From the NCBI GenBank assembly GCA_028707875.1, contig JAQWAC010000003.1, forward strand, positions 1-59,364: a DNA stretch of 59,364 nucleotides. Reading direction: 5' to 3'. The notes beneath the pieces are model-generated. The model was not told where the DNA came from. It did not search any database and saw only the letters and a program-made list of their open reading frames with translations. The stretch is from Candidatus Peribacteraceae bacterium (lineage in GTDB: Bacteria; Patescibacteriota; Gracilibacteria; Peribacterales; Peribacteraceae). This document shows, piece by piece, positions 4,093 through 47,615 of the stretch (positions within the stretch are counted from its first letter, which is position 1; each line of letters opens with the position of its first letter). Position numbers and translations under genes: made by a program.

Positions 4093-4839
4093 ATGCCAGA
4101 ATCGGACATCACCGAGCATCACTGCGTTCCGCATTCTTTTGACGGAGCGGCCACAAGAGTAAACCTTTCCAAGGTCACTCAGGCGGAGCACAACAGCTTT
4201 CACCAGATGACGGGGCATTCCCCTCCAGATTTCTTCCTGCGACGGTTCCTCATCGGCAGCGTCGGATGGATGGACCAGAAGGGACGCTCTCTCTCCCCGA
4301 GTCTGTATCAGGATGTTCTCTCCATTCTCACGCCGAACGACTGGCGTGATCTCTATCAGACGGGAACCTTCATTGTCCCGCACGGTCGTGATCAGGGGGA
4401 GGCCCTTCGTAAAGCCAAAGCAGCGTTCCACGTTGCGTGGTATCTGGACCGCGAAATGAGCCTCATCATGGATCAGATCGGCCTCCTTGGCATTCACAAG
4501 CTTCCGCCGTATGGCACGGTGCAGGAAATGCAGGGCATTCATCACTTCTTCGGGAAGGATCGGCCGCACGTCCTCATGCGGACATTTCTTCTCGACGGAC
4601 AGGATGCAGGGGAGCTGAAGTGGGTGAAGTCTCTGCGTGAAGATGTCCGACAGGAACTCCTTACAGTTCTGCGCACCACAAAGCTGGAGCGCCTCACCTC
4701 CAACGGTTCCAGTCAGCGTATTTTCGATCTTCTGCTCGATCATCACTCACGTCTGGTGGAATGTACGAAAAACTGGCAGCCCAATCTTCGCAATCATGCA
4801 GTCACCCTGAAGCAGATGTTGAGCGAACGTTTGCAGTAA
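4093..4839 (+). CDS. Hypothetical protein with an N-terminal HNH-nuclease-like motif
   Basis: 248 aa. Residues 9-41 (HHCVPHSFDGAATRVNLSKVTQAEHNSFHQM) fit the HH-x-P-x-S..G...NL....H...H pattern of HNH nucleases. The remaining ~200 aa match no family I recognise. Preferred over the antisense ORF 4003..4746. Confidence 0.7.
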   Translation: MPESDITEHHCVPHSFDGAATRVNLSKVTQAEHNSFHQMTGHSPPDFFLRRFLIGSVGWMDQKGRSLSPSLYQDVLSILTPNDWRDLYQTGTFIVPHGRDQGEALRKAKAAFHVAWYLDREMSLIMDQIGLLGIHKLPPYGTVQEMQGIHHFFGKDRPHVLMRTFLLDGQDAGELKWVKSLREDVRQELLTVLRTTKLERLTSNGSSQRIFDLLLDHHSRLVECTKNWQPNLRNHAVTLKQMLSERLQ

Positions 4840-4840
4840 C

Positions 4841-4932
4841 GCGGAAGGGCCACCTACGGTGTCCCTCCCACGGGCCCACCCTTCCCTAAATGGTTGCGCT
4901 CCAGGCGGGCAAAGCCCGCCTTCGCGTAATTG
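4841..4932 (+). repeat. Structured repeat R2, copy 1
   Basis: GGAAGGGCCACCTACGGTGTCCCTCCCACGGGCCCACCCTTCCCT...GCGCTCC-AGGCGGGC-aaa-GCCCGCCT-TCGCG. It starts 2 nt after the TAA at 4837-4839. Confidence 0.75.
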
Positions 4933-4934
4933 AT

Positions 4935-5566
4935 TTATGTTGGAAAAAGTGTTTTTCTCAGAAGTTGCATAAACCCCATCCAAAATATTGCGATTGAAAG
5001 TGCAATAATAAAATAGGTTTGAGGGGCATGCTGTAATTTAATTTCTCCATTAATAATTAGCGGAATTGGCGTCTTTTTTCCCAACCTTTCAAGATCGGAC
5101 AAATAGTCCTTTGGACAATGACCAGGAACCATTATCTCATACTGATTAAACTGATTAACATCAATCTCTGGAGGTAAACATTCATTATCCATTGCATTCA
5201 ATAATCTCACCTCAGACTTCCCCGCAGAATTTTTTAATATCAAAAACGGAGGTTCTAAAATGGGATAATGGGGCTTGAAAATTCTAGTGGTACAAAAGGA
5301 ATAATTAAGTAGTGTCACCGGCAATCTCAAGGTTTTTGCAATTGGGCTTTCCATTAATAGATGAACATTATCAAGATCATTGCCGTTCACTAGCTTCCAA
5401 TTTTGGCCGGTATCATTGCTGGTGTAGCAAAAATATTTTCCATCAGCAGTTTCTGTGAGTTGCCCTGATAGCGGCTCAAATGGAATTGTGTATGGAGGCC
5501 AAATCCAATAAATGAAAAAAGTAATTGGAACAAAAATTAATTAGAAGCCAAAGCAAACGGAGACAT
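4935..5566 (-). pseudogene. AT-rich membrane protein gene with an Asp-box, apparently frameshifted near its 5' end
   Basis: Track ORF 4935..5390 starts at GTG, but the frame stays open 50 more codons (LIFVPITFFIYWIWPPYTIPFEPLSGQLTETADGKYFCYTSNDTGQNWKL) up to the TAA at 5543-5541 with no start codon. An ATG at 5566 abuts the tyrS stop and is in another frame (MSPFALASN*). The two frames meet in the A/T run 5531-5545. Confidence 0.45.
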
Positions 5567-6976: not shown

Positions 6977-7160
6977 GATCAAACGTCCGTAGGATGACGT
7001 GATCAAATTGCCTTTCTTTTTCTGTCGGGGGCCTAGGGCACCTTGTCCGGTTCCCTCAGGCCCCCGACACCCCCTCACCCTCCTGACGGCCAAGCACGGA
7101 AATTTTGTTGGTTGTTTTTTTCATTAAAAATGGTATGCAGGGGCGGGTGGTGGCGGGCCT
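6977..7160 (-). repeat. Structured repeat R1, copy A (minus orientation)
   Basis: The reverse complement is about 90% identical by eye over ~140 nt to 19770-19913, with weaker similarity extending to ~7160. Confidence 0.7.
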
Positions 7161-7219: not shown

Positions 7220-8164
7220 ATGTCAACATGGACTGCCGAAGCAGAGATGCGGCTCGATGCGTTCCTCGCAAAGGGGGAAGTGGATTTGAGCAGGGTCAAA
7301 GCCGGTGAGCGTATTCGGGAAGGTTTTGTGCTCGTGAACGGACGCATCATCCGCAAGCCCGCGCACCGTTTGAAGCCGGGAGACGGTGTTGAACTCACGC
7401 ACAGTGAAAAACCGGCATCGGAATCGCATATTAAACTCGTCGATCAGAAGATCGCCGTTCTGTACGAGGATGCCGCGTGTCTGGTGATCTCCAAGCCCGC
7501 AGGTATTTCCGTCCATCCGGGGAGCGGCATGGCGCCCGATACGGAAACGCTGCTCAACGGTATCGCGTTCCTGTTCAAAAAGAAGCGCATCCCCTTCGAT
7601 GCTTCCTGCGTGCTCGTTCACCGGCTGGACCGGGAGACAACGGGCTGCCTGCTCCTTGCGAAGACACCGCAGACGCATGCGGAGCTGCAGAGGCAGTTCA
7701 AATCCCGCACGGTACGGAAGACGTACCTTGCGATTGTCGCCGGCATGCCGAAGCACATGACCGCCACCATTGATGCCCCGATCGGCCGGAACCTCACCGA
7801 CCGGACGAAAATGTCCGTCCTGCGAACCTCGACGAGCAGGGAGGCGCAGACGACCTACCATGTCATCGGTTCCGCAAACGATTCCTCTCTCGTTGCCTGT
7901 GATCTCCACACGGGCCGTACGCACCAGATCCGCGTGCACATGAGCGCCATCGGCCATCCGATCCTCGGTGACCCGACCTACCACTCCCCTTCCAGCGAGC
8001 ACCTGAACCGGAAGTTCGGGATTGAAGGGCTCTGCCTTCATTCGTGGAAGCTCTCCTTCGTTTCACCGGTGAAGAAGACCGAAACACATGTTTTCGCACC
8101 GCCGCCAAGGGCATTCACACGATCCCTCAAGAGTCTCTCACTCCCGCCCCCCAAGCACCCATAA
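7220..8164 (+). CDS. rluD: RluA-family 23S rRNA pseudouridine synthase (RluD-like, S4 domain + catalytic domain)
   Basis: N-terminal S4-like MRLDAFLAK...VLVNGR, then VISKPAGISVHPG, HRLDRETTGCLLLAK and THQIRVH. Start at ATG 7220, not the track start 7043. Confidence 0.9.
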   Translation: MSTWTAEAEMRLDAFLAKGEVDLSRVKAGERIREGFVLVNGRIIRKPAHRLKPGDGVELTHSEKPASESHIKLVDQKIAVLYEDAACLVISKPAGISVHPGSGMAPDTETLLNGIAFLFKKKRIPFDASCVLVHRLDRETTGCLLLAKTPQTHAELQRQFKSRTVRKTYLAIVAGMPKHMTATIDAPIGRNLTDRTKMSVLRTSTSREAQTTYHVIGSANDSSLVACDLHTGRTHQIRVHMSAIGHPILGDPTYHSPSSEHLNRKFGIEGLCLHSWKLSFVSPVKKTETHVFAPPPRAFTRSLKSLSLPPPKHP

Positions 8165-11269: not shown

Positions 11270-11352
11270 CGAGCTATTGTACCACGAATGAGCCCCCTTG
11301 ACCACACCGCTCTCTGCGCATTAACTGACCCGCATCTCTATAATGCGTGCCC

Positions 11353-13884
11353 ATGTCCTCGTACCGTCTGACGCAATCGGAAACTCAACGTACGCGATCG
11401 CTCAAGCAGCGAATGCTCATGGTGCACGTTTTTCTGTTGCTCTGCGGTCTCGTGATTGTGGCGCGTCTCATCGAACTGCAGATTCTCCGCGGAAATGAGT
11501 TCTATGCGTACGCTCAGGCGCAGCACTACGGGGGTGTTGTTCTCCCCGCCCGGCGCGGGGAAATTCTCGCCCAGAGCAGCAAGACGAATGAGACGAGCAT
11601 TCTTGCCACCAACACCACACTCGACCTCGTTTACGTGGATCCGCTGGTGCTGGAAGATCCCGTGATGGTGGCGGAGAAGCTGGCCGACATTCTTGTGACG
11701 CAGGAGTTCCATGCCGATTGTTCGGCGGGCAAAACGACCTGCCCCCGTGAACTTATGGGATTCTATGCCTCCGCTTTCGATCAGAATAAGCGCATTCAGG
11801 AACTCCTTTCCACCACGCTCCTCGAACCCCTCCCGACCGATCTCCCTCCGCCTCCCGTTTCGGAATTACCCGATCTCACGGAAGTGCGACGACTCTTCGC
11901 ACGTTCAATCGAGAGTCGCATTGGGGAAAAACGCGTCACGTTCGTCCCGCTCGTATATGGCGCCAACAAGGTGCAGATGCAAACGGTGGAAGAGCTGGGC
12001 ATTGCCGGCATCGACGTCAACAAACAATCGCGACTCATCTCCGCCGATCCGGAAAAAATCAATCAGGGGCGTCTCGCCGATCTGTCCCGAAAACTCTCCG
12101 AACCGCTCGCTCTGGATCAGATTGTTCTTCAGAACCTGCTTCGCAGCCGTCCGCTCCGGTACGTTTCCATCATGCATCGTCTCCCTCCCGCTCTCTCCGC
12201 ACGGATGCGCGATCTTCAGCTCACTTCCCTTCAGGAGACATTGAAACGAAAGAAGGAGGCGGCCACGACCGAAGCAGCCGAGTTGATCAAAGATCCTCTG
12301 CGCTCCATCGCACTTCTGCCGGAACATTGGCGCTTCTATCCCGATGGCACCGTCGCCTCACAGGTTGTGGGTTTCCTCAACCCCAATCAGGAAGCGCAAT
12401 ACGGCATTGAGCGGACCTTCGACCCGCAGTTGCGCGGCCAGGAGGGTCTGATCAGCACGGTGAGCGATCCTTCCGGAGGTCAGATTCTCACCGCCGATCA
12501 GCGCATCATCGACCCGAAAGACGGCGATACGGTCGTCCTCACAATCGATCGCTCCATTCAGGAGGCGGTGGAAGGGATCATGGAGAAGGCGGTGAAGAAT
12601 TCCGATTCGGACAGCGGACAGGCCATCGTGATGGATCCCTCAACGGGACGCATCATCGCCATGGTCAATGCGCCGATCTTTGACAGCAACAATTACGGGG
12701 AGGTCTATGGGAAGGAGCCGATGATTCTTTCCGAAGACAGGCGGAGGCAGATTGTTGTGGAGATCTATCACCCCGATACGCGCGCCTTCATTCTCAAGGC
12801 GTACATCGATGATGTTTTCACGACGGAAGGACGGTCGAAGATTTCGGATGAAAAACAGAAAATGCTCACGGAGATCGAGAAGCAGTACGATCTCAAGGAC
12901 ATCGTCCGCTACTACTACTATTTCGGGGAAACGACCCGCATCGAAATCTTCCCGACCGATCGGCCGGACGTGTGGCTGAAGTTCAAGAACGGCATCGGCG
13001 TGGGAGCCTATTTGAACCGCAACGTGCAGGCCGTGTATGAGCCGGGATCCGTCATGAAGCCTGTTACCATGGCAATCGCCATCGATCAGGGCGAGGTGAC
13101 CCCCGCGGATATTTACGACGACAACGGTCCCGTGAAAGTGGATGAGTACACGATCCAGAATGCGCTCTTCAAGTACTACGGCAAGGTGACCATGACGAAC
13201 TGTCTCGAATTCTCCATCAACACCTGCATGACGAGTGTTTCCACCAAGCTCGGCCGCAAACTCTTCTATCGCGCGCTTGATCGCTTCGGCTTCGGCCATA
13301 TCACGGGCATCGAACTCGAGGATGAATTGCCGGGGGAACTGCCTCCGTGGCGCAACTGGAGCAACTCCCTTCTTGCGACCGCCGCCTACGGGCAGGGTGT
13401 CTCCGCCACGCCGCTCCAGATGCTCACGGCCTTCGCCGCGCTTGCGAACGGCGGCAAACTGATGAAGCCGACGATCATTGATCGCATCATTCACACGGAC
13501 GGCTCCGTGGAGCGGACGCAGACGAAGATTTTGGATCAGGTGATCACACCGGAGTCATCGGCGACCATCACGGCGATGCTGGTGAGCTCCGCGACAAAAG
13601 GTTACGCCAAGTCGGCCAAAGTCCCCGGGTACCGCATCGCGGGAAAAACCGGAACATCGCAGGTCGCAGGACCGGGCGGCAAGTACGAAACGGGGACGGG
13701 ATCGGTGATCACCTCCTTCGCCGGCTACGCGCCCGTCAATGACCCCAAGTTCGTCGTCCTCGTTAAGTTCGACCGCCCCAAGGCGCACGGAAGCGAACTT
13801 GGCGTGCAATCGGCGGCTCCTGTCTTCAAAGACATTGCCGCGTTCATGTTCAAATACTACGGGATACCGCCGGATGACAAGTAA
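11353..13884 (+). CDS. Class B penicillin-binding protein (PBP2/FtsI-type transpeptidase)
   Basis: N-terminal TM, PBP dimerisation region, SVMKP (SxxK) and KTGT motifs. TATAAT at 11339-11344 sits 8 nt before ATG 11353, so the track GTG 11347 is unlikely. Confidence 0.9.
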   Translation: MSSYRLTQSETQRTRSLKQRMLMVHVFLLLCGLVIVARLIELQILRGNEFYAYAQAQHYGGVVLPARRGEILAQSSKTNETSILATNTTLDLVYVDPLVLEDPVMVAEKLADILVTQEFHADCSAGKTTCPRELMGFYASAFDQNKRIQELLSTTLLEPLPTDLPPPPVSELPDLTEVRRLFARSIESRIGEKRVTFVPLVYGANKVQMQTVEELGIAGIDVNKQSRLISADPEKINQGRLADLSRKLSEPLALDQIVLQNLLRSRPLRYVSIMHRLPPALSARMRDLQLTSLQETLKRKKEAATTEAAELIKDPLRSIALLPEHWRFYPDGTVASQVVGFLNPNQEAQYGIERTFDPQLRGQEGLISTVSDPSGGQILTADQRIIDPKDGDTVVLTIDRSIQEAVEGIMEKAVKNSDSDSGQAIVMDPSTGRIIAMVNAPIFDSNNYGEVYGKEPMILSEDRRRQIVVEIYHPDTRAFILKAYIDDVFTTEGRSKISDEKQKMLTEIEKQYDLKDIVRYYYYFGETTRIEIFPTDRPDVWLKFKNGIGVGAYLNRNVQAVYEPGSVMKPVTMAIAIDQGEVTPADIYDDNGPVKVDEYTIQNALFKYYGKVTMTNCLEFSINTCMTSVSTKLGRKLFYRALDRFGFGHITGIELEDELPGELPPWRNWSNSLLATAAYGQGVSATPLQMLTAFAALANGGKLMKPTIIDRIIHTDGSVERTQTKILDQVITPESSATITAMLVSSATKGYAKSAKVPGYRIAGKTGTSQVAGPGGKYETGTGSVITSFAGYAPVNDPKFVVLVKFDRPKAHGSELGVQSAAPVFKDIAAFMFKYYGIPPDDK

Positions 13885-13917
13885 CATGGAAGGCAAACCT
13901 GCGGTTTTCCTTCCATG
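13885..13917. terminator. Hairpin between convergent genes (CATGGAAGGcAAA-cctgcgg-TTTtCCTTCCATG)
   Basis: Starts 1 nt after the PBP stop. U-tract partly inside the stem. Confidence 0.5.
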
Positions 13918-14045
13918 AACCATCCACTCCCTGAAAGGAGTGTCTCCGGCATTGGGGCCCACGCCTGCGTGCCGGAACGCCGAGATTCCATTCCTCATAA
14001 CGGCACTTCGGCGTGCAGGCACGAGACCCAATGCTTCGGCACAGA

Positions 14046-18413: not shown

Positions 18414-19523
18414 ATGGCCGCCCCCGCACCCACTTCTTCCTCCGCTCAGCAGCAGACGACTGCAGCACCTCAGATCTCTGTGAATTTGCAGGAGTTACTC
18501 GACAATCTCTTCCTCGTCCTCACGGACAAGGAGGCCATGGTCGTGAAGAAGCGTTTTGCGCTTCAGGGCAACCAGAAGCAGACACTTGAGAAGATCGGGA
18601 AGCACTTCAATGTGACGCGTGAGCGCATTCGCCAGATTGAGAGCATCGCTCTCAGTAAATTGAAGAGGACGGTCAGGACCACGAAGCTCGATGAGGTGAA
18701 CTCCATTGCGAAGAGCCTGCTTCGCGTGAACGGCGGACTCATGCGCGAGGATGACATCATTTCCCTCTCCCTCCGCCGCATTCAGGGCAGTTCCGCAGTG
18801 GATGGTTCGGTCCTTCGACTCTCCTTCTCCATCGACAACGAATTGGCTCTTGGTTCCCGCAGTAACACGTTTGTGCCGTTCTGGCGTCTCGATTCCCTCG
18901 CGATGGAGGACATTCTCCTCATCGTGAACAGCACGGTGAAGATCCTGAAGAAGCGGAAGTCCTGCATGCAGGTGGATGAACTCGTTTCCTCCGTCCAGTC
19001 CATGAACCTCTTTGACGGACGCATTCCAAGCAGAGAGCTCATTATGAGTTGCCTGAAAATCGACGAGCGCCTGAAGGAGATTGCGGAAGGCTGGGGACTC
19101 ACCGAGTGGAGATTCGTCCGACCTCGTTCCATCCGCGACAAAGTGGAAATCATTCTGAAGAAGTCCGGCGAGCCGCTCCACTTCATGGAGATCGCCAACC
19201 GCATCCGCGAATCACACTTCGACCATAAGAACGTCACGGTGCAGGCCGTCCACAACGAACTCATCCGCTATCCGCAGTTCGTCCTCGTGGGACGCGGTCT
19301 GTACGCCCTCCGCGAGTGGGGCTACGAGCCGGGAACGGTGGCCGACGTGATCGAGCGGATCCTCAAGGAGAAGGGCGCCCTCAGCAAGAAAGAAATCATT
19401 GCCGAAGTCGGGAAGCAGCGCACCGTAAAGGTGGGCACGATTTCCCTCAATCTCCAGAAGATGCCGTACTTCACCCGCGTGGGACGTGCGGTCTATGCCT
19501 TCGACGAGAGCAAGAAGATCTGA
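18414..19523 (+). CDS. Sigma-70 region-4 domain protein with two C-terminal HARE-HTH-like domains
   Basis: LTDKEAMVVKKRFAL...TLEKIGKHFNVTRERIRQIESIALSKLKR (region 4). GEPLHFMEIANRI...FVLVGRGLYALREWG and GALSKKEIIAEV...FTRVGRAVYAF (HARE-HTH like). Confidence 0.8.
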   Translation: MAAPAPTSSSAQQQTTAAPQISVNLQELLDNLFLVLTDKEAMVVKKRFALQGNQKQTLEKIGKHFNVTRERIRQIESIALSKLKRTVRTTKLDEVNSIAKSLLRVNGGLMREDDIISLSLRRIQGSSAVDGSVLRLSFSIDNELALGSRSNTFVPFWRLDSLAMEDILLIVNSTVKILKKRKSCMQVDELVSSVQSMNLFDGRIPSRELIMSCLKIDERLKEIAEGWGLTEWRFVRPRSIRDKVEIILKKSGEPLHFMEIANRIRESHFDHKNVTVQAVHNELIRYPQFVLVGRGLYALREWGYEPGTVADVIERILKEKGALSKKEIIAEVGKQRTVKVGTISLNLQKMPYFTRVGRAVYAFDESKKI

Positions 19524-19545: not shown

Positions 19546-19570
19546 AAGAGACCCTCCCGGGTCTCTTTTT
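19546..19570 (+). terminator. Rho-independent terminator (GAGACCC-tccc-GGGTCTC + TTTTT)
   Basis: Read directly, 23 nt after the TGA at 19521-19523. Confidence 0.8.
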
Positions 19571-19572: not shown

Positions 19573-19666
19573 CGTGGAAGGGCCACCTACGGTGTCCCTC
19601 CCACGAGCCCACCCTTCCCTTTAGTGGTGGCGCTCCAGCACGGGAAACCCGCGCTTCGCGCATTGG
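19573..19666 (+). repeat. Structured repeat R2, copy 2
   Basis: Same 5' half as copy 1. The 3' hairpin arms are AGCACGGG/CCCGCGCT. Confidence 0.75.
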
Positions 19667-19686
19667 TTACGATTTGGTAAGGGTTT

Positions 19687-19913
19687 CCCATCCACCCACC
19701 GCCTGTCTTTCCGAAGCTCCATAGGAGCGAAGGAAGGTGGTAGCGGAGCCCATCACTTTGAGAAATTTAAACAAAAACAACCAACAAAATCTCCGTGCTT
19801 GGCCGTCAGGAGGGTACGGGGGCGTTGGGGGCATAGGGAACCGGACAAGGTTCCCTGGCCCCCAAAAGAAAAAGAAAGACAATTTGATCACGTCATCCTA
19901 CGGACGTTTGATC
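19687..19913 (+). repeat. Structured repeat R1, copy B (plus orientation)
   Basis: Matches the reverse complement of 6977-7160. Contains the long hairpin GTTGGGGGCATAGGGAACC-ggacaa-GGTTCCCTGGCCCCCAA and a terminal hairpin GATCACGTC...GACGTTTGATC. Confidence 0.7.
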
Positions 19914-20018: not shown

Positions 20019-20852
20019 ATGAAAGCGACCCGATTCCTTGCCTTCTCCCTTGTTCCCCTCTGTGTTTTCCTCGCTTCCTGCGGAGAGGAGCCTCCCGCCC
20101 CTCCTCCACTCCCCCAAGGCGAGCAGACCGTGAAGGGCCTTCTCCTTCCCACGGAAATCTCACTTCTCAGACGCGGAACGCATGTGTTGAAGAAGGACGG
20201 GAAAGAGTTCTGTCTCGTGGAGAGTCAGACCGTGAACCTGCGCTCGTTCGAAAACAATGAGGTGGAAATGAAAGGGACATTCGAATACAACAGCGATCCC
20301 CAGCTCCTCCCCGTGCTCGTCGTCCGGGAGATGAAACTCACCGAGCAGGATACGAAAGACGTTTCACTCCCCTCACTCGGATTCTCCTGCCGGACACCGA
20401 CTGCATGGACCAAAGAGGAGGTGAGCGGAAGTACTCGATTCATCATGACCGGAAATCCTGAACCCATCGTCTCCGTGCAGAAAAAGAAGGGGGCATCTCT
20501 TCCGACGGGAGCTCCGTTCCTGATTGACGGAAATCATGCCGTACGAACGGTCGATGCAACGACCAAAGCTGAATCCGTTTCGCTGATCAATGGCGATGAT
20601 CTCATCACTTTCGCCTTCACTCCGGGCCCCGAGCCTTCGGATGAACTCAAGGCCCAGTGGTCCAGCTTCCTTGATTCCATACACTTTTCTTCCGTCGACG
20701 GATCGAGCAGCTCCGCCTCCGACACCGGCAGTTCCGAGAACGATGAAGGCGCTCCCTGCGGCGGAGCCGCGGGGATTCTGTGTCCCTCCGGACAGTACTG
20801 TGCCATCACGGATGTGAAGGAAAATATCGGGAAGTGCAGGAGTGTGAAGTGA
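20019..20852 (+). CDS. Lipoprotein of unknown function
   Basis: Signal peptide with lipobox (VFLASC). 277 aa. Its N-terminal domain is paralogous to the lipoprotein at 58716. Confidence 0.8.
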   Translation: MKATRFLAFSLVPLCVFLASCGEEPPAPPPLPQGEQTVKGLLLPTEISLLRRGTHVLKKDGKEFCLVESQTVNLRSFENNEVEMKGTFEYNSDPQLLPVLVVREMKLTEQDTKDVSLPSLGFSCRTPTAWTKEEVSGSTRFIMTGNPEPIVSVQKKKGASLPTGAPFLIDGNHAVRTVDATTKAESVSLINGDDLITFAFTPGPEPSDELKAQWSSFLDSIHFSSVDGSSSSASDTGSSENDEGAPCGGAAGILCPSGQYCAITDVKENIGKCRSVK

Positions 20853-25408: not shown

Positions 25409-26422
25409 ATGTTGCGAGTCGCCATCAACGGATACGGCCGTATCGGACGTATCGTTCATCGTCAGCTTCTCGCCCGTTTCCCGAAAGAGGTCGATGTGGT
25501 CGCCATTAATGCGTCCAGTGACGCCGCCATGCGGCGCTACCTCCTCAAGTATGACACCTTGCACGGCCGCTTTGACCATTCCGTGGAGATCTCCGGTGAG
25601 AATCTTACGATCGACGGAAAGCCCGTCTCCGTCGTGAAGGAAAAGGATCCCGCCAAATGTCCCTGGAAGAATCTGAAGGTCGATGTCGTGATCGAAGCGA
25701 CGGGGAAGTTCCGAACGAAAGAAAAAGCGCAGGCCCACCTGACCGCGGGAGCCAGAGCCGTCGTCATTACCGCTCCTCCCAAGGACGACACGCCGATGAT
25801 CGTGCGCGGCGTCAACGATGCCCTGCTGGAGAAGTCGCTCCCCATTGTCAGTGCCGCTTCCTGCACCACCAACTGCATCGCACCCGTGATACAGGTTTTG
25901 GACGTCTGGAAAGGGATCCGTCGCGGACTTCTCTGCACCACGCATTCCTATACCAGTTCACAGAACCTGCTGGACAACGCTACGGACAGTTCCAAATTGC
26001 GCATTGCGCGCGCGGCCGCTCTCAATATCATTCCTTCCACCACGGGGGCCGCCAAGGCGGTGGGCAAAATCTTCACACATCTCAAAGGAAAACTGGATGG
26101 CATGGCACTGCGGATTCCCGTCCCCGATGTCTCCGCTTCCTATTTGGTTCTGGAACTCAATGCCCCCGCAACCATCGAGGAGGTGAATGGCAAACTGCGC
26201 GAGGCATCCGAAGGGGCACTCAAGAATATTCTGGGAGTGGAAGAAGGATTACTCGTCTCATCCGACTATGTCTCCGACCCTCACTCGAGCACCGTGGATC
26301 TCGATTCCACGAATGTCATTGACGGCACCATGGTGCAAATCCTTGCCTGGTACGACAACGAATGGGGATACTCGATGCGCGTAACCGAAATGGTGCAGCA
26401 GGTGGGTGCCTTCCTCCGCTAA
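25409..26422 (+). CDS. gap: Glyceraldehyde-3-phosphate dehydrogenase, paralog 1
   Basis: VAINGYGRIGR, catalytic SCTTNC and WYDNEWGYS. 337 aa. Confidence 0.9.
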   Translation: MLRVAINGYGRIGRIVHRQLLARFPKEVDVVAINASSDAAMRRYLLKYDTLHGRFDHSVEISGENLTIDGKPVSVVKEKDPAKCPWKNLKVDVVIEATGKFRTKEKAQAHLTAGARAVVITAPPKDDTPMIVRGVNDALLEKSLPIVSAASCTTNCIAPVIQVLDVWKGIRRGLLCTTHSYTSSQNLLDNATDSSKLRIARAAALNIIPSTTGAAKAVGKIFTHLKGKLDGMALRIPVPDVSASYLVLELNAPATIEEVNGKLREASEGALKNILGVEEGLLVSSDYVSDPHSSTVDLDSTNVIDGTMVQILAWYDNEWGYSMRVTEMVQQVGAFLR

Positions 26423-26440: not shown

Positions 26441-27382
26441 ATGGAATCCTCCCCCTCCACTCCCGCGGAAAGGCGGAGCCTGAATGCGCATCTCTACCAC
26501 GTTTCCAAAACGCCGGACGACCTGCGGCACCTGATTCTGGACATCTCCCGCGCCGCGAAATACATCAGCTACGCAATCCAGACCACCGAAGCGGGTCTTG
26601 CGGGAACAACGAACCAGTTCGGAGAGGATCAGGTGAAACTCGATGTCCTCTCCGATCGAATCATTGAGGATCACCTGCGCGAGAGTCGGCTGGTGGCAAG
26701 TTTTGCCTGCGAGGAACGTCCCGAAGTGGTGGATCTGGATCCCAAAGCGCCCTATTCCGTCGCCTTCGACCCCCTCGACGGCTCCTCCCTCGTGGATGTG
26801 AACTTCGCAATCGGATCGATCTTCGGCATCTACAAGGGGAAGAGCGTCCTGGGCCGCAAGCCGAAGGAACAGGTGGCCGCCCTCTATGTTCTCTACGGGC
26901 CGCGCACCATCCTTGTCTACTCCACCGGCAAAGGTGTACATGAATTCCTTCTGAACGATGTGGGTGAGTTCATTCTGCTCCGCGAGTATCTGGGCGTGGC
27001 CGATGACGCGAAAAATTTCAGTCCGGGCAATCTCCGCGGCGTCGACGAGACCAAAGGATACCGCGACGTGGTGGAGACATCACTGACGGCCAAGCTGACC
27101 CTTCGTTATTCCGGCTGCCTGGTGGCGGATGTGCATCATATCTTCAGCAAGGGGCAGGGCCTCTTCACCTTCCCGGGAAGCGCGAAGTACCCGACGGGAA
27201 AACTCCGCCTCGCCTTCGAGTGCGGGCCATTCGCGTATCTTGCCGAGCAGGCCGGTGCCGCGGCATCCGACGGGAATGGCCATATTCTCGACCTGACGAT
27301 CGAGTCCGTCGACCAGCGCTGCCCGCTCATCATCGGCTCCAGGAACGACGTGAAGAAAGTGTGCGGGATGCTCAATGCGTAG
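26441..27382 (+). CDS. fbp: Fructose-1,6-bisphosphatase class I
   Basis: FDPLDGSS, YVLYGPRT and GKLRLAFECGPFAYLAEQAGG-type motifs. Lies 18 nt after gap paralog 1. Confidence 0.9.
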   Translation: MESSPSTPAERRSLNAHLYHVSKTPDDLRHLILDISRAAKYISYAIQTTEAGLAGTTNQFGEDQVKLDVLSDRIIEDHLRESRLVASFACEERPEVVDLDPKAPYSVAFDPLDGSSLVDVNFAIGSIFGIYKGKSVLGRKPKEQVAALYVLYGPRTILVYSTGKGVHEFLLNDVGEFILLREYLGVADDAKNFSPGNLRGVDETKGYRDVVETSLTAKLTLRYSGCLVADVHHIFSKGQGLFTFPGSAKYPTGKLRLAFECGPFAYLAEQAGAAASDGNGHILDLTIESVDQRCPLIIGSRNDVKKVCGMLNA

Positions 27383-27500: not shown

Positions 27501-27842
27501 TTACTGTTCAGTAACAGGCTCCTGACTTTTGTTTTCCGCTGTCGGCACATCCCAGTAGGCCTCTTTCAGCGCACGTCCCATAGCCACGTCCAGCGTCTGC
27601 ACACGCTCGGGGTCCTTGGCTTTTCCCTCAAGGTTGTACAGCTTCTTCAGCGACCGGTACGATCCCCAGATGTAATACTCCTTGCGGCGCGGTGCCCTCC
27701 TCTTGTCATCGCCTTCCCTCTCCGGACGCGGCGGGCGTTCCAATGGAATCACATCTCCCGCTTTGTTCCACTTCACCGGACCGATCACCGTACGGGAGTC
27801 GGTGTCGATATAGACAAAGTCGGTATCGGCATAGGAAGACAT
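27501..27842 (-). CDS. Hypothetical protein (113 aa)
   Basis: Internal ATG of track ORF 27501..27977 (MSSYADTDFVYIDTDSRTVIGPVKWNKAGD...). No recognisable domain. Confidence 0.5.
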   Translation of the reverse strand: MSSYADTDFVYIDTDSRTVIGPVKWNKAGDVIPLERPPRPEREGDDKRRAPRRKEYYIWGSYRSLKKLYNLEGKAKDPERVQTLDVAMGRALKEAYWDVPTAENKSQEPVTEQ

Positions 27843-27909
27843 CGTAAGCAGTATAGCAGAGACCGGGAATCTGAAATCAGACTGCGTCCCGATATTCCGG
27901 TATTTCCGC

Positions 27910-28491
27910 TTATCGGTACATCCGATGTTCTTCGACGGGGGGAGGCGGAGGGGGAGGAGGTTTGGCGGGCGCTTCAAAATACTCCTGCTTATCGACTGAT
28001 TTCGACTGTTCCTCGGGATGATGGAAGAGTTCCTGCACTTCGTTTCTGCGCTGTTCCTGAAAACGAAGGAAAGAATAGAGCATCGCCACGAGTCCTCCGA
28101 TGAGCGATACGTAAATCCCGAACCGGATCTCCATGCGCGAGAATTCGAGCGTGACTTTGATGAGGACCGACAGCGAGGCCAGAATCAGAATGATCGCCTG
28201 AGACGTGGCCATAAACCGAACGGCCTCACGATGCCGACGCCTGACAAGAATCGGCCCGCCCGTAAGCGGAATCACCGTAATGAGAAGCACAAAAAGCTGC
28301 AGACCGAAAATGACGATGCCGATAAAAGACGTGTAAAACCCGAATCCCGAATGGGATGAGTCCTGACCGCCCAACGTCTGCCCGCCGATCCAGGGAAAGA
28401 ACACTCCGATAAGACTCAAAAACGCGCCGATATTCAGAATTTTCTCCTCGAGTTCGAGAGAAAGCAGTTTTCGGAAGAAATTGGAGGCCAT
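27910..28491 (-). CDS. Multi-pass membrane protein with a C-terminal poly-Pro tail
   Basis: Internal ATG 28491 (MASNFFRKLLSLELEEK...). About 5 TM helices. Ends ...APAKPPPPPPPPVEEHRMYR. Confidence 0.6.
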   Translation of the reverse strand: MASNFFRKLLSLELEEKILNIGAFLSLIGVFFPWIGGQTLGGQDSSHSGFGFYTSFIGIVIFGLQLFVLLITVIPLTGGPILVRRRHREAVRFMATSQAIILILASLSVLIKVTLEFSRMEIRFGIYVSLIGGLVAMLYSFLRFQEQRRNEVQELFHHPEEQSKSVDKQEYFEAPAKPPPPPPPPVEEHRMYR

Positions 28492-30500: not shown

Positions 30501-30587
30501 TCATGAGAGAAAAACCGCAGGTTTGTCTCACGAGGAGTGGCCCCGGACTGGCGGAGCACGTCTTCGCCACACAAGTTTTTTGAGAGA

Positions 30588-37818: not shown

Positions 37819-37902
37819 GATGATGCGTAGCATAGCAAATATCAGTAAATATCTATCGCGAAGACAGTCTATGCCTGTCCGGAGCGATACCATGAAGGGA
37901 AA

Positions 37903-38000
37903 GGTGGGCTTATGGGATGGCAACCGGCGGTTTCCCTCCCATGTAAAACCTCTGACCTACTGGGTAAACCAGTCACTTTAAAACCAACTGCCAGCCCACC
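37903..38000 (-). pseudogene. tRNA-like relic related to the 5' half of tRNA-Val
   Basis: A 7-bp acceptor-like pairing GGTGGGC/GCCCACC encloses ACTGG-TTTAC-CCAGT-AGGTC (the Val anticodon arm minus 2 nt). The D arm is broken and ~45 nt sit in place of the T arm. Confidence 0.4.
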
Positions 38001-38022
38001 GAAGCCCGCAGGGCGTAGGTGG

Positions 38023-38035
38023 GAGCTAACCGCCC
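38023..38035 (-). other. 13-nt fragment identical to the 5' end of tRNA-Val (GGGCGGTTAGCTC)
   Basis: Read directly. Confidence 0.4.
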
Positions 38036-38100
38036 CCTCAGGCGAAGTGTAACAGAAAACCATGCATCATTAAGGGTGAGGGAAAATCCACACCTGTACA

Positions 38101-41311: not shown

Positions 41312-41429
41312 GTGCTTCCAAGTGACGAACTGCCGACCTGACATCAGTATACAGAGATCGGTGTGCAGCATTGCGCATGATTGCCTGTCTTTCAAGTGTG
41401 CCACTACTTCGACGCGATCGTCATAGTAA

Positions 41430-41523
41430 CAATCGCGCGAAGGCAAGCTCTGCTTGCCTGGAGCGCAACCACTTAAGGGAAGGGTGGGCTCGCGGGAGGG
41501 ACACCGTAGGTGGCCCTTCCACG
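41430..41523 (-). repeat. Structured repeat R2, copy 3 (minus orientation)
   Basis: 3' hairpin arms AGGCAAGC/GCTTGCCT. Overlaps the last 17 codons of the cca ORF and ends ~120 nt upstream of tRNA-Ile. Confidence 0.75.
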
Positions 41524-42879
41524 AATAAACTCCCGCGCCTCGCTTTTCTTCGTCACCTCTCCTCTCACCTGCGCATCATGGAGAGCGGCAATCACCTGCC
41601 CCACTTTCTCGCCCGGTGCGAGACCGAGAATTTTCATAATTTCCTCTCCGGAGAGCAGTTGCTTCGCGGGTCGGGGATGGTCATCCAAAAAGCGGTGATA
41701 GTCCTGCAGGATTTCCCCGTACAGCGCGTAGTCCTGCGGATCCGTTCCCGCGATGTCCAGCCAGAAGATCTGCAGCAATTCATGGAACCACGGATGGTGG
41801 TACCAGTGCGTCTTGCGTTCCACGGTCATGTCCGCAAAGAATCCCATCATCATGTGATGGGTGATGAGCCAGTGCACTTTGTCCTTCCGGCGGGAAGGAC
41901 ACTGCAGGCGCGTGAGCACCTCGCTCGCCGTTTTGGCCGAAACGGGGGCATGCTCGTCAAAGCGGATGCGCTCCTGCAGGGAGAAGGTGTCCGCCTTTCC
42001 CACGTCATGGAAGAGCCCCGCAATGCGCACATCAATCGCGTGCTCGGGGAGGAAACTCTTGAGCAGCAGCATGGTATGGTCCCACACATCTCCCTCGTGG
42101 TGATACTCCTTGGGCTGTGCCATGCCCTTGCAGGCATGGAGTTCCGGACTGATGAACGTCATCATGCCCGTTTCCCACAAATCCTCGAAGGCACGATCAG
42201 GGTGCGGCCCGAGGAGCATCTTCTCCATTTCCCACAGGATGCGCGCGCCCGATAAGCCTTCCACGAACCTCGCATTCTCCTGTACCGCGCGGTAGGTGTC
42301 CGGATGGTACTGACCATCGAGAAGCGCGCGGAAACGTACGACGCGCAGCAACCTCAATGCATCGTGTCTGATGCGAACACCCGGTTCGCCGATAAAGCGG
42401 ATAAGTCGCTCCGTCAGGTCATCCTCCCCGTGGAACGGATCGTAAATCTCGCGGGAGATGGGGTTGAAGTAGATCGCATTGATGGTGATATCACGACGCT
42501 TGGCATCCTGCGCACGTTTGCCGAAGACAACAACTTCCGGATGACGCCCGTCCGATGCTTCGTCATCCTCACGGAACGTCGTCACTTCGAAGTTCAGACC
42601 TTTGAGACGCACGATGACACTCCCCAAATCCTTGCCCGGTGACCCGACGGTGTTCGTGAGGAGCTTCAGCACCTCATCGGGCAGCGCCTCCGTGGCGATA
42701 TCGATATCCTTCGGAATCCTCCCGAGCAGCATATCGCGGATTCCTCCCCCCACCCACCACGTGTCGTAACCCGCATCCGTCAGGATCTCCACGATTTTGT
42801 AGGCATTCTCCCCTTCTTTGGTTGCGAGAGTGGCGGTGATGATTTCCTTCGGGAGTGGCACGGTCAAAGTATATCGCAT
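41473..42879 (-). CDS. cca: CCA-adding tRNA nucleotidyltransferase with an HD domain
   Basis: GGGIRDMLLGRIPKDIDIAT head domain and HDVGK HD motif. ATG 42879 avoids overlap with the upstream gene. The track GTG start is 42909. Confidence 0.85.
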   Translation of the reverse strand: MRYTLTVPLPKEIITATLATKEGENAYKIVEILTDAGYDTWWVGGGIRDMLLGRIPKDIDIATEALPDEVLKLLTNTVGSPGKDLGSVIVRLKGLNFEVTTFREDDEASDGRHPEVVVFGKRAQDAKRRDITINAIYFNPISREIYDPFHGEDDLTERLIRFIGEPGVRIRHDALRLLRVVRFRALLDGQYHPDTYRAVQENARFVEGLSGARILWEMEKMLLGPHPDRAFEDLWETGMMTFISPELHACKGMAQPKEYHHEGDVWDHTMLLLKSFLPEHAIDVRIAGLFHDVGKADTFSLQERIRFDEHAPVSAKTASEVLTRLQCPSRRKDKVHWLITHHMMMGFFADMTVERKTHWYHHPWFHELLQIFWLDIAGTDPQDYALYGEILQDYHRFLDDHPRPAKQLLSGEEIMKILGLAPGEKVGQVIAALHDAQVRGEVTKKSEAREFIRGRATYGVPPASPPFP

Positions 42880-42893
42880 CCCCGCGAGGAGAC

Positions 42894-43145
42894 CTACCGA
42901 TACATGCACTTGAGAACAAGCAGGGATGTCGCCAACAGAAATTCAACGATGGTCGTGAGAATGAACGGCATGCTGGCGATGCACACACCGTATGCGATGC
43001 TCAGCAACAATCCGATCTGGTACAGAATCATCCACGGAATGGAAATGTCTTTGGTTGATTTGGTGCGCCATGACTTGATGACCTGAGGCAGCAGCGCCAC
43101 GGTGATCAAACCTCCCGATACATAACCGAGCAGCTCAACGTACAT
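42894..43145 (-). CDS. SemiSWEET (PQ-loop) sugar transporter
   Basis: 83 aa, 3 TM, LLPQVIKSWRTKSTKDIS PQ motif. Confidence 0.8.
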   Translation of the reverse strand: MYVELLGYVSGGLITVALLPQVIKSWRTKSTKDISIPWMILYQIGLLLSIAYGVCIASMPFILTTIVEFLLATSLLVLKCMYR

Positions 43146-43210: not shown

Positions 43211-44047
43211 ATGCTTCGTTTTGCCGTTGCCGGCACTCCCCACTCCACTCCCGCGCGTGGCGGAACCGTGGAGGGTCTGATGCAGGCGCATCGGCTCGGC
43301 ATCAACGCCATGGAGATCGAGTGGGTCCAGAGTGTGCCGAAGAGCCCCGAACGCATGGCGGAGATCCGTGAAACGGCCGAGGCACTCGGCATCACCCTCA
43401 CGGTCCATGCTCCGTACTTCGTCAATCTGAATTCGCCTGAGAAAGCAAAGCTGGCCGCAAGCAAGCGACGCGTGCTGGATGCGCTTGCAATGGCGGAGTT
43501 GTGCGGAGCCCGTTCCGTCTGCGTCCACGCAGCCTTCAATCTTGGACTGCCTCCGGAACAGGTATTTGAGAATGTCCGGTGCGCTACCGAAGACATCATG
43601 AAGAGCAAAGCGAAGCTCTTCCCCCATGTGAATCTTGCGTACGAAACGATGGGCAAGCCCACTCAATTCGGAACATTGGAGGACGTTTTGAAGATCAGCA
43701 AGGAATTCGGCAATTACCCCTGCGTCGATCCCGCCCACATGCACGCCCGCACAAACGGCCTGATCAACTCGACGAAGGAATGGAATGAGATGCTTGATCT
43801 CTATGAGAACTCCCTCGGCAAGAAGGCGCTGAAGTCGGTCCACATGCACTTCTCCGGAATCGCCTACACGGTCAAGGGCGAGCGCATGCACCTGCCATTG
43901 CAGAAGAGTGATGCGAGGTGGAAAGACTTCATCGGCGTACTTAAGGAGAAGAAGATTGAGGGAACGGTCGTGTGCGAGTCACCGCTTCTGGAAGAGGACA
44001 CATTGCTCATGCAACATACGTATCAGAAATTGATAATGGATAATTGA
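43211..44047 (+). CDS. Xylose-isomerase-like TIM-barrel protein, endonuclease IV-like
   Basis: TVHAPYFVNLNSPE and VCVHAAF resemble Nfo/AP-endonuclease-2 motifs. TATACT lies 6 nt before the ATG. Confidence 0.7.
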   Translation: MLRFAVAGTPHSTPARGGTVEGLMQAHRLGINAMEIEWVQSVPKSPERMAEIRETAEALGITLTVHAPYFVNLNSPEKAKLAASKRRVLDALAMAELCGARSVCVHAAFNLGLPPEQVFENVRCATEDIMKSKAKLFPHVNLAYETMGKPTQFGTLEDVLKISKEFGNYPCVDPAHMHARTNGLINSTKEWNEMLDLYENSLGKKALKSVHMHFSGIAYTVKGERMHLPLQKSDARWKDFIGVLKEKKIEGTVVCESPLLEEDTLLMQHTYQKLIMDN

Positions 44048-44109
44048 TAATGGATAATTGCGAACTTCGAAATAACATGTCCATTTTCCATTATCCATTT
44101 TCCATTACC
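44027..44109. repeat. Tandem and inverted AATGGATAATTG / CCATT(A/T)T(C)C array
   Basis: TTGATAATGGATAA x2 (44030-44057), a 20-nt spacer, then an inverted arm TCCATTTTCCATTATCCATTTTCCATTACC (44080-44109). 24 of 29 arm positions are complementary. Confidence 0.6.
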
Positions 44110-44160
44110 AAAACGGGTCAATTATTTGGTACACTCACGACATATTTTCTCCATCATAGT

Positions 44161-45165
44161 ATGAACATTGCCATCAACGGATTCGGACGCATCGGCCGCC
44201 AGACGTTACGCATCGCTCTGGAGAGTCACCCGGATGTGCATGTGGTCGCCATCAACGACCTCACGGATGGGGCGACGCTTGCGCATCTCTTTGAGTTCGA
44301 TTCCACCTACGGACGATTCGAAGCGGAGGCGGAATTCAAGAACGGCAAGCTTTCGACAAAACATGGAGATGTCGTCCTCACTGCGGAAAAAGATCCTTCG
44401 GTACTGCCCTACAAAGATCTCAAAGTGGATATCGTGCTCGAATGTACCGGTAAGTTCACCAAACGCGAAGAGGCCGCTCTGCACCTGAAGGCCGGCGCAA
44501 AGAAGGTCATCATTTCCGCGCCGGGAAAAGATGAAGTGGACGGAACGTTCGTGATCGGCGTGAACCACGAGACCTACGACCCCAAGAAGATGCATGTGAT
44601 CTCGAACGCCTCCTGCACCACCAACTGCCTCGCGCCGATGGCCAAAGTCCTCAACGACTCGTTCGGCATCACGTACGGTCTCATGACGACGATCCACAGC
44701 TACACGAACGACCAGAAGCTGCTCGATCTGCCGCACAAAGATCTGCGCCGTGCGCGCGCGGCGGCGATCAATATGATCCCGACGAGCACCGGTGCCGCGA
44801 AGGCCATCGGGCTCGTGATTCCGGAACTGAAAGGCAAGATGAACGGGGTTTCCATCCGCGTGCCGACACCCACAGGCAGCATCACGGATCTGACGGTCGT
44901 AACGGCAAAGCCGACGACAGTGGAGGAAGTGAATGCCGCATTCGAGGAGGCGTCGAAGGGAAAAATGAAAGGCATTCTCGGCTGTGAGACGCGCCCGCTC
45001 GTGCTGCAGGATTACGTCATGGATCCCCGCAGCTCCATTATCGACGCTCCGCTCACTCAGGTGATCGGCGGCACGCTGGTGAAGACCTTCTCGTGGTATG
45101 ACAACGAGTGGGGATACTCGAACAGGCTCGTGGAGCTGGCGGAGTACATCGGGAAGAAGTTGTAG
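44161..45165 (+). CDS. gap: Glyceraldehyde-3-phosphate dehydrogenase, paralog 2
   Basis: MNIAINGFGRIGR, ASCTTNCLAP and WYDNEWGYSNRLVELAEYIGKKL. Start at ATG 44161. Confidence 0.95.
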   Translation: MNIAINGFGRIGRQTLRIALESHPDVHVVAINDLTDGATLAHLFEFDSTYGRFEAEAEFKNGKLSTKHGDVVLTAEKDPSVLPYKDLKVDIVLECTGKFTKREEAALHLKAGAKKVIISAPGKDEVDGTFVIGVNHETYDPKKMHVISNASCTTNCLAPMAKVLNDSFGITYGLMTTIHSYTNDQKLLDLPHKDLRRARAAAINMIPTSTGAAKAIGLVIPELKGKMNGVSIRVPTPTGSITDLTVVTAKPTTVEEVNAAFEEASKGKMKGILGCETRPLVLQDYVMDPRSSIIDAPLTQVIGGTLVKTFSWYDNEWGYSNRLVELAEYIGKKL

Positions 45166-45338
45166 AATCCACGGATTTCGATAATTTGGCTAATCTAAGC
45201 CAAGAATTGGTCATTGAGGCGATTATCCCATGAGCGCACGTAACCTCAAACACACGGCTTTTTCTAAATATGGCTTTTCAAAGCTAAAACTAGCTGGCAA
45301 GTCCTTTTACTTGTCTCATTCTTCTAACAACCAGTAAT

Positions 45339-45890: not shown

Positions 45891-46131
45891 TAGTTTTCAA
45901 GAATGGCATGGGATTCCATTTGTGCCAAACATGAACGATGAATTGCAACACGCACTTGCAGAAGAAATGGCTGCAAATACTGAACACAAAAGAGAAGAAA
46001 CAAAAGTATATAAAAGGAAAAATTGGCTATGGGGATGGGGCACAAGACTTCTTGGTTTTTTTATCATTGCAGGACTTCTTGCAATAGGATTCGTCGCTGG
46101 TTATGGGGTAAGATCGCTAATGATACAATAG
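45859..46131 (+). CDS. Small C-terminally TM-anchored protein (90 aa)
   Basis: ATG 45859 overlaps the ImmA gene end by 32 nt. MTPPPPDRQPNSF...WLWGWGTRLLGFFIIAGLLAIGFVAGYGV. Confidence 0.4.
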   Translation: MTPPPPDRQPNSFQEWHGIPFVPNMNDELQHALAEEMAANTEHKREETKVYKRKNWLWGWGTRLLGFFIIAGLLAIGFVAGYGVRSLMIQ

Positions 46132-47110: not shown

Positions 47111-47160
47111 CCGTCATTGATATCATTGACTATATTCTTAAGTTATTCATAATCACCTAT

Positions 47161-47570: not shown

Positions 47571-47615
47571 AGGCAAGCTCGCCCCTCCAGATGGGAAGGG
47601 GTAGGGTGAGGGCGG
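47571..47615 (-). repeat. Possible degenerate, internally deleted R2 copy
   Basis: Shares AGGCAAGCTC and GGGAAGGG-T-GGG...GGG with the plus-strand reading of copy 3. Confidence 0.25.

Follow-up and report, generated by a model that had tools for sequence, protein, structure and literature searches.

The question raised by a 59,364-nt stretch of DNA from a Candidatus Peribacteraceae bacterium (contig JAQWAC010000003.1), here called the window, is what the short structured repeat at the 3' ends of several of its genes is and what it might do there. The repeat, referred to as R2, was described in an initial annotation as a ~92-nt element with three copies, at 4841-4932, 19573-19666 and 41430-41523. 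All three were recovered and share an exact 27-mer (GGAAGGGCCACCTACGGTGTCCCTCCC; at 4843, 19576 and, on the minus strand, 41494) with no match in 100 shuffles of the window. The positions hold but the length does not, as R2 runs about 10 nt further in the 3' direction into a T-rich tail. R2 is a real and previously undescribed repeat of ~105 nt (about 100-125 nt in the family), found only in Peribacteraceae of the Candidate Phyla Radiation (CPR). There is about an even chance that it represents a family of short non-autonomous interspersed elements specific to Peribacteraceae, a mobile repeat whose terminator-like 3' hairpin makes it a portable transcript-end or terminator module, with a function and a mobilising enzyme that we infer from sequence.

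An exact 22-mer from the first hairpin of R2 (P1) was found at 25 loci in a collection of species-representative genomes. These belong to 15 assemblies with at most 8 copies per metagenome-assembled genome (MAG), all of them Candidatus Peribacteria, Peribacteraceae or Peregrinibacteria MAGs, and the complete short element is present in all 29 matches to the 22-mer (the 25 loci and the window). A degenerate 35-nt pattern retrieved 28 stretches from JGI metagenomes, confirmed by a covariance model, R1, that was built from nine gap-free copies. After removal of duplicates there are 47 distinct copies from the 15 species-level MAG assemblies and the metagenome contigs; a contig in GCA_028711845.1 is 99.99% identical to the window. 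The relatives were examined as loci of 1-15 kb around the copies (L numbers below), and the copy number, extrapolated from locus and metagenome matches, is low at roughly 5-20 per genome. The suggestion of the initial annotation to build a covariance model has been taken up for these sets; Peribacteraceae relatives carry R2, and no Rfam family matches it. When the whole window was compared with Rfam 15 at the gathering score, four tRNAs passed and no R2 family was found, and permissive Rfam searches around copies 1, 2 and 4 gave chance-level matches only. R2 had no match in plasmid and phage collections (blastn, distant mode) or in the viral contigs of IMG/VR (two patterns), and no description of it was found in the full-text literature on repeats, miniature inverted-repeat transposable elements (MITEs), repetitive extragenic palindromes (REPs) or structured RNA in Peribacteria, Peregrinibacteria, CPR or Patescibacteria. 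In the Peribacteria genome paper, origin-proximal repeats are the only ones mentioned.

From 5' to 3', R2 comprises P1, a C/U-rich linker in which a short hairpin P2 forms, the two-part hairpin P3 and finally a tail rich in T. The first ~48 nt (P1 and linker) are nearly invariant across copies, which bears out what had been noted of the 5' half, and hardly any two copies have the same P3. P1 has 13 base pairs with two 1x1 mismatches, CGUGG-A-AGGG-C-CACC [UAC] GGUG-U-CCCU-C-CCACG, and its apex can be written ACC-NNC-GGT. The linker CCCACCCUUCCCU reads RRCCCACCCUUCCCU, followed by 3-5 variable nucleotides and an invariant GG; part of it forms P2, which is short and variable in register, for example CACC/GGUG or CCCUUCC/GGAGGGG. 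Only the diverged copy at 37845-37943 prefers to pair GGAAGGG with CCCTTCC; in the main family neither segment varies, which makes this pairing uninformative there. P3 is GC-rich and has an outer stem of 4-6 bp, a conserved internal loop (5'-UCC / 3'-UC) and an inner stem which in its short type has 8 bp and a triloop; in longer versions the loop is GCCCRCGAGA or YCCCGNCRGAGYCA. The tail is typically ATTGTTTA, and positions +6 to +11 past the stem are 49-68% T, against a background put at about 22%, which is an estimate. Copies 1-3 fold more stably than shuffles of their sequences (z = -3.5 to -4.3). Much larger insertions are carried by three copies (L004-, L024 and L006), of which two are expanded within the loop of P3 and one within the 3' strand of P1.

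Some R2 copies have nested in them, in either orientation, short GC-rich hairpin sequences of a second family (motifs CCCATTCGAC ... GCTCAGGG ... GTCGAAGG), located in the loop of P3 or the 3' strand of P1 (L004, minus strand, inside the copy at ~7700-7925; L006 5040-5085; L024 4690-4720). This second family is also found just 3' of tRNA-Ile and tRNA-Val genes of relatives (L029 3660-3800; L027 11520-11700 and 18835-18965).

The sequence of P3 drifts while its pairing stays. The complementary arms first reported for copies 1-3 are correct (AGGCGGGC/GCCCGCCT, AGGCAAGC/GCTTGCCT and AGCACGGG/CCCGCGCT), including the one mismatch in the last of them, an A.C. In 30 copies aligned to the model, standard pairs occupy 95.9% of the cells compared with 80% in shuffles, changes on both sides are seen in 16 of 27 pairs, and 117 cells have a double change compared with 37 in shuffles; the observed values were reached by none of 500 shuffles. 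Sliding the pairing partners against each other lowers the pairing to 37-51%. The same covariation is present in a structure-blind MAFFT alignment of nine copies, and the helices were also predicted by RNAalifold. In P3 the covariation is strong in both stems. The base of P1 covaries as well, with CGUGG/CCACG replaced by CAUGG/CCAUG in five copies, and P1 also covaries between subfamilies (GGGCCACC...GGUGUCCC versus GGGAAACC...GGUUGCC versus GGCAAACC...GGUUUUCC). The central observation of the initial annotation, covariation that reflects selection on structure, is therefore correct and general, since it extends to 30 copies, both stems of P3 and the P1 subfamilies. The covariation means selection on pairing within one strand, and by itself it does not tell an RNA from a single-stranded-DNA structure.

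Comparison with relatives bears on the origin of the copies. Copy 3 does overlap the end of an ORF, as had been stated, that of the CCA-adding enzyme gene. The locus with this gene and tRNA-Ile(tat) is syntenic in L029 (88% amino acid identity), L026 (84%), L027 (76%) and L028 (76%), and R2 is absent from it in all four. The enzyme of the relatives ends in ...REFI and 5-8 further residues; that of the window ends in ...REFI and RGRATYGVPPASPPFP, a tail of 16 amino acids encoded by the element up to its stop codon, so that ~5 codons at the end of the gene have been replaced by copy 3. The identity between the window and L029 breaks off directly after TTTATTCGT, at the 5' end of R2, and the spacer of the empty site, too diverged to align, gave no 3' insertion boundary. 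No R2 copy was found in 21 kb of L027, a Peribacter riflensis-like contig. Genes 27501-27977 and 26441-27382 of the window have an unrelated spacer of 118 nt between them; in L056 a copy lies between their orthologs, and the nadK/purA spacer of L056, 14 nt long, is without a hairpin corresponding to the one at 30501-30532 in the window. At the locus of copy 1 in L059 (80% amino acid identity), 6 nt without R2 separate the 248-aa gene from the convergent gene that follows it, which is not an ortholog of window ORF 4935-5390 and is taken to be tyrS from its KSEARRLIE motif; the copy in L060 has lost P1, and L048 has a full copy 64 nt past the stop codon. The 5' end of copy 4 is also the point where a 5' fragment of a pseudo-tRNA-Val gene (37950-38045, minus strand) breaks off. 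R2 is an insertion-polymorphic repeat of mobile type, not an ancestral 3' untranslated region (UTR), and gains and loses copies over evolution. The interpretation first given is in this sense partly supported, being right on structural selection and incomplete on origin.

The pseudo-tRNA-Val fragment precedes the real tRNA-Val(tac) and has a 33-nt hairpin inserted in its D-loop (CCACCTACGCCCTGCGGGCTTCGGTGGGCTGGC); ~19 nt of upstream sequence have been duplicated as well. The partial duplicate is old, because L027 has at the corresponding position (18668-18740) a shorter one whose insertion is different.

Conservation after insertion can be followed best at copy 2, which is the unambiguous ortholog of the copy in L034, with the same upstream terminator, the same junctions and alignable flanks. 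The two differ at 2 of 98 positions, compared with 33% at the four-fold sites of the adjacent gene (binomial P ~ 1e-14), and one of the two differences turns an A.C mismatch in P3 into G-C. Independent insertion is excluded here because the P3 variant is unique to that locus. This comparison shows strong constraint in place for at least one R2 copy, at the one locus with unambiguous orthology. Among the more distant positional counterparts (L002/L011, L001/L003 and copy 1/L048) the 5' module is 96-98% identical and P3 63-77%, with flanks at chance level (40-57% in forced global alignment), and independent insertion at the same spot is possible for these pairs. The stems of L002 and L011 differ by five compensated pair changes and no uncompensated one.

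The window segment 19667-19770, between copy 2 and a ~140-nt repeat described below, is non-coding and also conserved, ~93% identical to L034 versus 67% at four-fold sites. It contains the hairpin CUUUCCGAAGCUCC-AUA-GGAGCGAAGGAAGG.

Gene contexts were assigned with a gene caller scored by codon usage, which misses some genes. There are 14 copies between convergent genes, 13 in tandem contexts and co-oriented with the genes, four in tandem contexts and anti-oriented, and four between divergent genes. Tandem contexts, the only ones informative about orientation, favour co-orientation by 13:4 (binomial p about 0.05, with some gene-calling error), and to this extent the claim that R2 lies in sense orientation downstream of a gene stands; between convergent genes it is trivially true. 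The stop codon of the co-oriented upstream gene lies at most 6 nt before R2 in 18 of 31 cases. Copy 1 does follow a TAA but with an offset of 0 nt instead of 2, as the element starts at 4840, and copy 2 does lie behind a real terminator, 2 nt from its T-tract. Inspection of the flanks showed about 10 copies preceded on their own strand by a canonical terminator, with a start 2-8 nt past its T-tract. About 10 of the 47 copies, counted from the contexts, adjoin tRNA genes, and in four of these a tRNA of opposite orientation begins 2-8 nt from the 5' end of R2; at these four the antisense R2 must be part of the tRNA leader and evidently does not block the tRNA. The upstream genes, identified from translations and Pfam, are unrelated housekeeping genes (ribosomal protein S9/rpsI-, DnaA-, DnaX- and RpiB-like, PBP2, CCA enzyme) without a functional theme. 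The upstream flanks of the copies are unrelated to each other and contain no conserved promoter.

At the 5' junction, T-T-W-W-K is preferred directly before the CRTGG of the element, and C is nearly excluded at -4 to -1. A MITE or insertion sequence (IS) terminus with terminal inverted repeats (TIRs) and target-site duplications (TSDs), which the initial annotation had named as a finding that would speak against it, did not appear, as no significant TIR or TSD was found. The longest flank matches in the 47 copies were no better than in flank-shuffled controls, a test of low power because both flanks are A/T-rich, and the only complementarity from end to end is CGYG(G)AAG / CTTCGCG (7-8 nt), without covariation. 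CATGG variants retain CTTCGCG, and the 3' segment of R2 pairs inside P3 instead. R2 is shown to land at A/T-rich gene ends (stop codons and terminator T-tracts) without TIR or TSD. No protein recurs between genome loci L001-L025 and the window. An element derived from IS200/IS605 of the palindrome-associated transposable element (PATE) type would have subterminal hairpins that resemble each other at its two ends and would insert 3' of a fixed tetra- or pentanucleotide; in R2, P1 and P3 are dissimilar, P3 is variable and the 5' flank has only the loose T-T-W-W-K. An integron attC site would lie at the 3' end of a promoterless cassette, but the core sites RYYYAAC / GTTRRRY were not seen on inspection of flanks and ends, and the genes next to R2 have housekeeping functions.

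The only IS in the window belongs to the IS1595 family (45218-47112) and has a DDE transposase (46141-47049, minus strand) and 26-nt TIRs (GGCGATTATCCC...) that are 88% complementary. It is located in a low-GC stretch (44-48 kb, GC 0.48-0.49) with a Peptidase_M78 ORF. The possibility that R2 is a MITE of this IS is ruled out, as the TIRs are unrelated to the ends of R2, and that R2 had not been recognised at first as any named RNA family or IS end agrees with this and with the Rfam result.

Copies of R2 have been inserted into A/T-rich gene ends, at stop codons and terminator T-tracts. If R2 is a mobile repeat that carries a transcript end, transcription of the upstream gene would run into it, and R2 would form the 3' end of the transcript. 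P3 and its U-rich tail might then terminate transcription intrinsically in one direction and protect the 3' end, so that abutting or converging genes would be provided with a transcript end. The invariant P1/linker could be the sequence-specific recognition site of a partner, most simply the mobilising enzyme. A terminator or 3'-end role would explain the co-orientation, the copies filling convergent spacers and the tolerated antisense copies in tRNA leaders. Among the properties of intrinsic terminators, R2 has the GC-rich hairpin, a tail that is T-rich yet interrupted, and the co-orientation in tandem contexts; the terminator module or 3'-UTR element proposed earlier fits the tail and the orientation bias.

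Several observations weigh against this combination of mobility and termination. The T-tail is interrupted, as in the typical sequence given above, a second terminator is redundant in the ~10 copies directly behind canonical terminators, and the invariant 48-nt module is not needed by a terminator. A simple terminator/promoter scan found no more sites than in shuffles and did not call the tail of R2 as a terminator. The strand on which R2 folds is ambiguous, with G.U to A.C pairs at 25:9 in the model-fitted alignment but 15:20 under rigid ungapped registration, and antisense folds are at least as stable as sense folds because the conserved A.C mismatch of P1 turns into G.U. Some copies are decayed, the one in L060 lacking P1 and one in L059 being degenerate. 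No mobilising enzyme, TIR or TSD was found in the window or in the 1-15-kb loci around the copies.

R2 might also be a purely selfish DNA element of REP, MITE or PATE type without host function, which we consider rather unlikely. Its hairpins would serve only as structures of single-stranded DNA in transposition, where P1 would be read by its sequence and P3 by its shape, and the position at gene ends would result from an A/T target preference and the purging of harmful insertions. The presence/absence polymorphism, the truncated CCA gene and the disrupted tRNA copy agree with this explanation, as do the patchy distribution within one bacterial family, with none in the 21 kb of L027, the decayed copies, the insertions directly behind existing terminators and the absence of a clear G.U excess on the sense strand under rigid registration. 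However, a neutral relic would have diverged at copy 2, where the difference to L034 is 2% compared with 33% at four-fold sites. The flanks of 47 copies and the IS of the window gave no TIR, TSD or linked transposase, the copy number is low, and the bias for co-orientation in tandem contexts also argues against a purely selfish element.

A less probable alternative, which we regard as doubtful, is a regulatory RNA derived from 3' UTRs, in which the linker in the P2 loop would be a seed for purine-rich, Shine-Dalgarno-like sequences or the site of an RNA-binding protein. P1 and P3 would stabilise such an RNA, and its copies would have spread by duplication or mobilisation and been retained for the role. 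The near-invariance of the 48-nt module in 47 copies from 15 assemblies would suit it, together with the conservation in place at copy 2 and L034 and the co-orientation with upstream genes, right after stop codons. C-rich seeds of the UCCC type are used by the Staphylococcus small RNAs Rsa and RoxS. On the other hand, the unrelated upstream flanks have no conserved promoter, the complementarity of GGAAGGG and CCCUUCC is internal to R2, and there is no functional theme among the upstream genes.

It is improbable, from the sequence features available, that R2 represents a new class of structured RNA domain that has spread around CPR genomes by retroposition and has a host function, like a short interspersed nuclear element (SINE). 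The 48-nt module would then be an aptamer or a seed for a protein or RNA partner, and R2 would be copied via its own transcript, for example by a reverse transcriptase, an enzyme type common in CPR genomes. A fixed 5' start, a terminator U-tail at the other end, A/T-rich targets and the absence of TIR and TSD would be in keeping with retroposition of a small RNA.

A site for recombination or protein binding at the DNA level, similar to attC, dif or the bacterial interspersed mosaic elements (BIMEs) bound by IHF and either double-stranded or cruciform, is very improbable. P1 would be its binding palindrome, which would agree with the imperfect palindrome of 33 bp conserved in sequence on both arms, with mismatch types lacking strand asymmetry under rigid registration and with breakpoints that fall at the 5' end of R2. 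But a DNA-binding protein that reads sequence has no need of the intrastrand pairing that stays in P3 while its sequence varies. Further, inspection found no attC core sites and housekeeping genes instead of cassettes in the flanks, and in the window the orientation is independent of replication direction, with copies on both strands and a monotonic cumulative GC skew. Two other candidates are ruled out: an HDV-like or other self-cleaving ribozyme with GGAAGGG/CCCUUCC as its P1, since the CGUGG.../...CCACG hairpin covaries (CAUGG/CCAUG) and leaves no room for the nested pseudoknot, and peptide coding, since on inspection only one frame reaches a stop and the variation is not biased to synonymous changes.

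In its general kind R2 behaves like REP/BIME, Correia, BOX and the Rickettsia palindromic elements (RPE), i.e. as a small non-autonomous structured interspersed repeat. REP/BIME sequences of Enterobacteria and Pseudomonas, mobilised by RAYT, are likewise multicopy extragenic imperfect palindromes at gene 3' ends with a mosaic build; their hairpin shape is kept by compensated changes, and they have roles in stabilising mRNA 3' ends and in termination, roles which in R2 are only proposed. A REP is, however, a palindrome of 20-40 nt and R2 has three hairpins and the invariant module. REPs have GTAG/CTAC at the foot of the hairpin and often form inverted pairs; R2 has CTAC in the P1 apex and no inverted partner, and its second hairpin is unrelated in sequence to the 33-nt imperfect palindrome of P1. 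REP copies number hundreds per genome and those of R2, in a CPR bacterium, tens.

The Correia elements (MITEs of Neisseria), ERIC/IRU and RUP are comparable as non-autonomous intergenic insertions of ~100-150 nt with stable hairpins and presence/absence among strains. They are co-transcribed with neighbouring genes and can be terminators or processing sites, which in R2 is suggested by sequence. In contrast to R2 they have clear TIRs and duplications of TA or similar, and R2 is polar, with a constant 5' part and a variable 3' part. BOX of Streptococcus pneumoniae also combines constant and variable modules in intergenic positions and has a predicted stable RNA structure, but it varies by the number of boxB units and R2 by compensated substitutions and loop expansions in one hairpin, and there is no sequence relation. 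RPEs are small palindromic repeats that add residues to proteins, as copy 3 does in the CCA enzyme; they are inserted in frame inside genes and translated throughout, whereas R2 lies at gene ends and overlaps genes only occasionally. Intrinsic terminators, including the mycobacterial TRIT motif, share with R2 the GC-rich hairpin with a T-rich tract, the co-orientation and the filling of convergent spacers, but not the interrupted U-tract, the conserved 48-nt module upstream or the fact that the copies are insertions. As R2 has neither the TIR and TSD of a MITE nor the form of a REP, differs from IS200/IS605 elements and attC sites, and belongs to no Rfam family, it is filed as a distinct small structured repeat.

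To our knowledge almost nothing is known of non-coding RNA, terminators or mobile DNA in the CPR/Patescibacteria, whose genomes are small and tightly packed. R2 offers a well-defined covariance model, strong covariation, a clade-specific distribution and documented insertions. It is a tractable case of a selfish-type repeat that has apparently been put to use at gene ends, with a signature of selection at one locus. R2 combines mobility and constraint in a poorly known phylum, as an element whose general category is familiar and whose mechanism we infer. Should the invariant module have a dedicated partner, its identification would bring to light, in uncultured bacteria, either a new system of mobilisation or a new interaction of RNA and protein. 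R2 is also useful as an annotation marker because it extends or truncates ORF calls, as in the CCA-adding enzyme.

Table 1. R2 copies, parts of copy 1 and related sites in the window
Feature	Position	Strand	Recognised by	Context and remarks
R2 copy 1	4840-4938	+	Covariance model, 121 bits	Follows TAA (4837-4839) of gene 4093-4839; stop codon (4935-4937) of convergent ORF 4935-5390 falls within the T-rich tail
Copy 1, P1 hairpin	4840-4872
Copy 1, C/U-rich linker with P2	4873-4893
Copy 1, two-part P3	4894-4929
Copy 1, T-rich tail	4930-4938
R2 copy 2	19573-19674	+	Sequence and covariance model	Follows intrinsic terminator 19547-19570 (AGAGACCC-TCC-GGGTCTCT-TTTT) of sigma70-r4/HARE-HTH gene 18414-19523
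R2 copy 3	41422-41523	-	Sequence	~120 nt upstream of tRNA-Ile(tat); overlaps end of CCA-adding enzyme gene (ORF 41473-42909)
R2 copy 4	Model match 37839-37945, element 37839-37943	-	Covariance model, 71 bits, E=1e-16 (4e-16 in second search)	Diverged subfamily, P1 preserved by compensated changes; tRNA-Val(tac) 20-35 nt downstream
R2 copy 5 (diverged)	Model match 13883-13996, element 13885-13990	+	Covariance model, 39.6 bits; z=-5.1	Begins 0 nt past TAA of PBP2 gene 11347-13884
Hairpin-only R2 relative	30501-30532	-	Weak model match; z=-1.1 (weak)	P1-like, apex ACC-TGC-GGT; between convergent NAD kinase and purA genes
Site without recognisable R2 copy	47571-47615			Scrambled fragments resembling linker and one P3 arm

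Copy 4, the diverged copy 5 and the hairpin-only relative (Table 1) had been missed at first, and the degenerate fourth copy suspected at 47571-47615 gave no covariance-model match even at E<=10. Copy 5 is a diverged relative of the P1-B subfamily (CATGGAAGGCAAACC-TGC-GGTTTTCCTTCCATG) and shares the architecture of three hairpins, and a related copy is found at L061 3332-3445.

Between copy 1 and tyrS there is an AT-rich segment of ~630 nt (4935-5566) that holds the convergent ORF of 151 amino acids (4935-5390, minus strand, no Pfam match). The ~140-nt repeat mentioned above forms an inverted pair at 6977-7119 and 19773-19913 (92-95% identity between the two) and precedes tyrS and, in the same relative orientation, gene 20019-20852. 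It is also present at L046 650-802 and in the 5' flank of the R2 copy in L053, has no Rfam and no T-box match, and is a candidate for a shared leader or regulatory element.

Two paralogous genes for glyceraldehyde-3-phosphate dehydrogenase (25409-26422 and 44044-45165) contain stretches that are 75-90% identical and appear as direct repeats. The minus-strand gene 169-606 contains degenerate tandem codon repeats of 9 and 12 nt (CTTCTTCGCCTTC...) at 445-607, which presumably encode a low-complexity tail rich in acidic residues and lysine.

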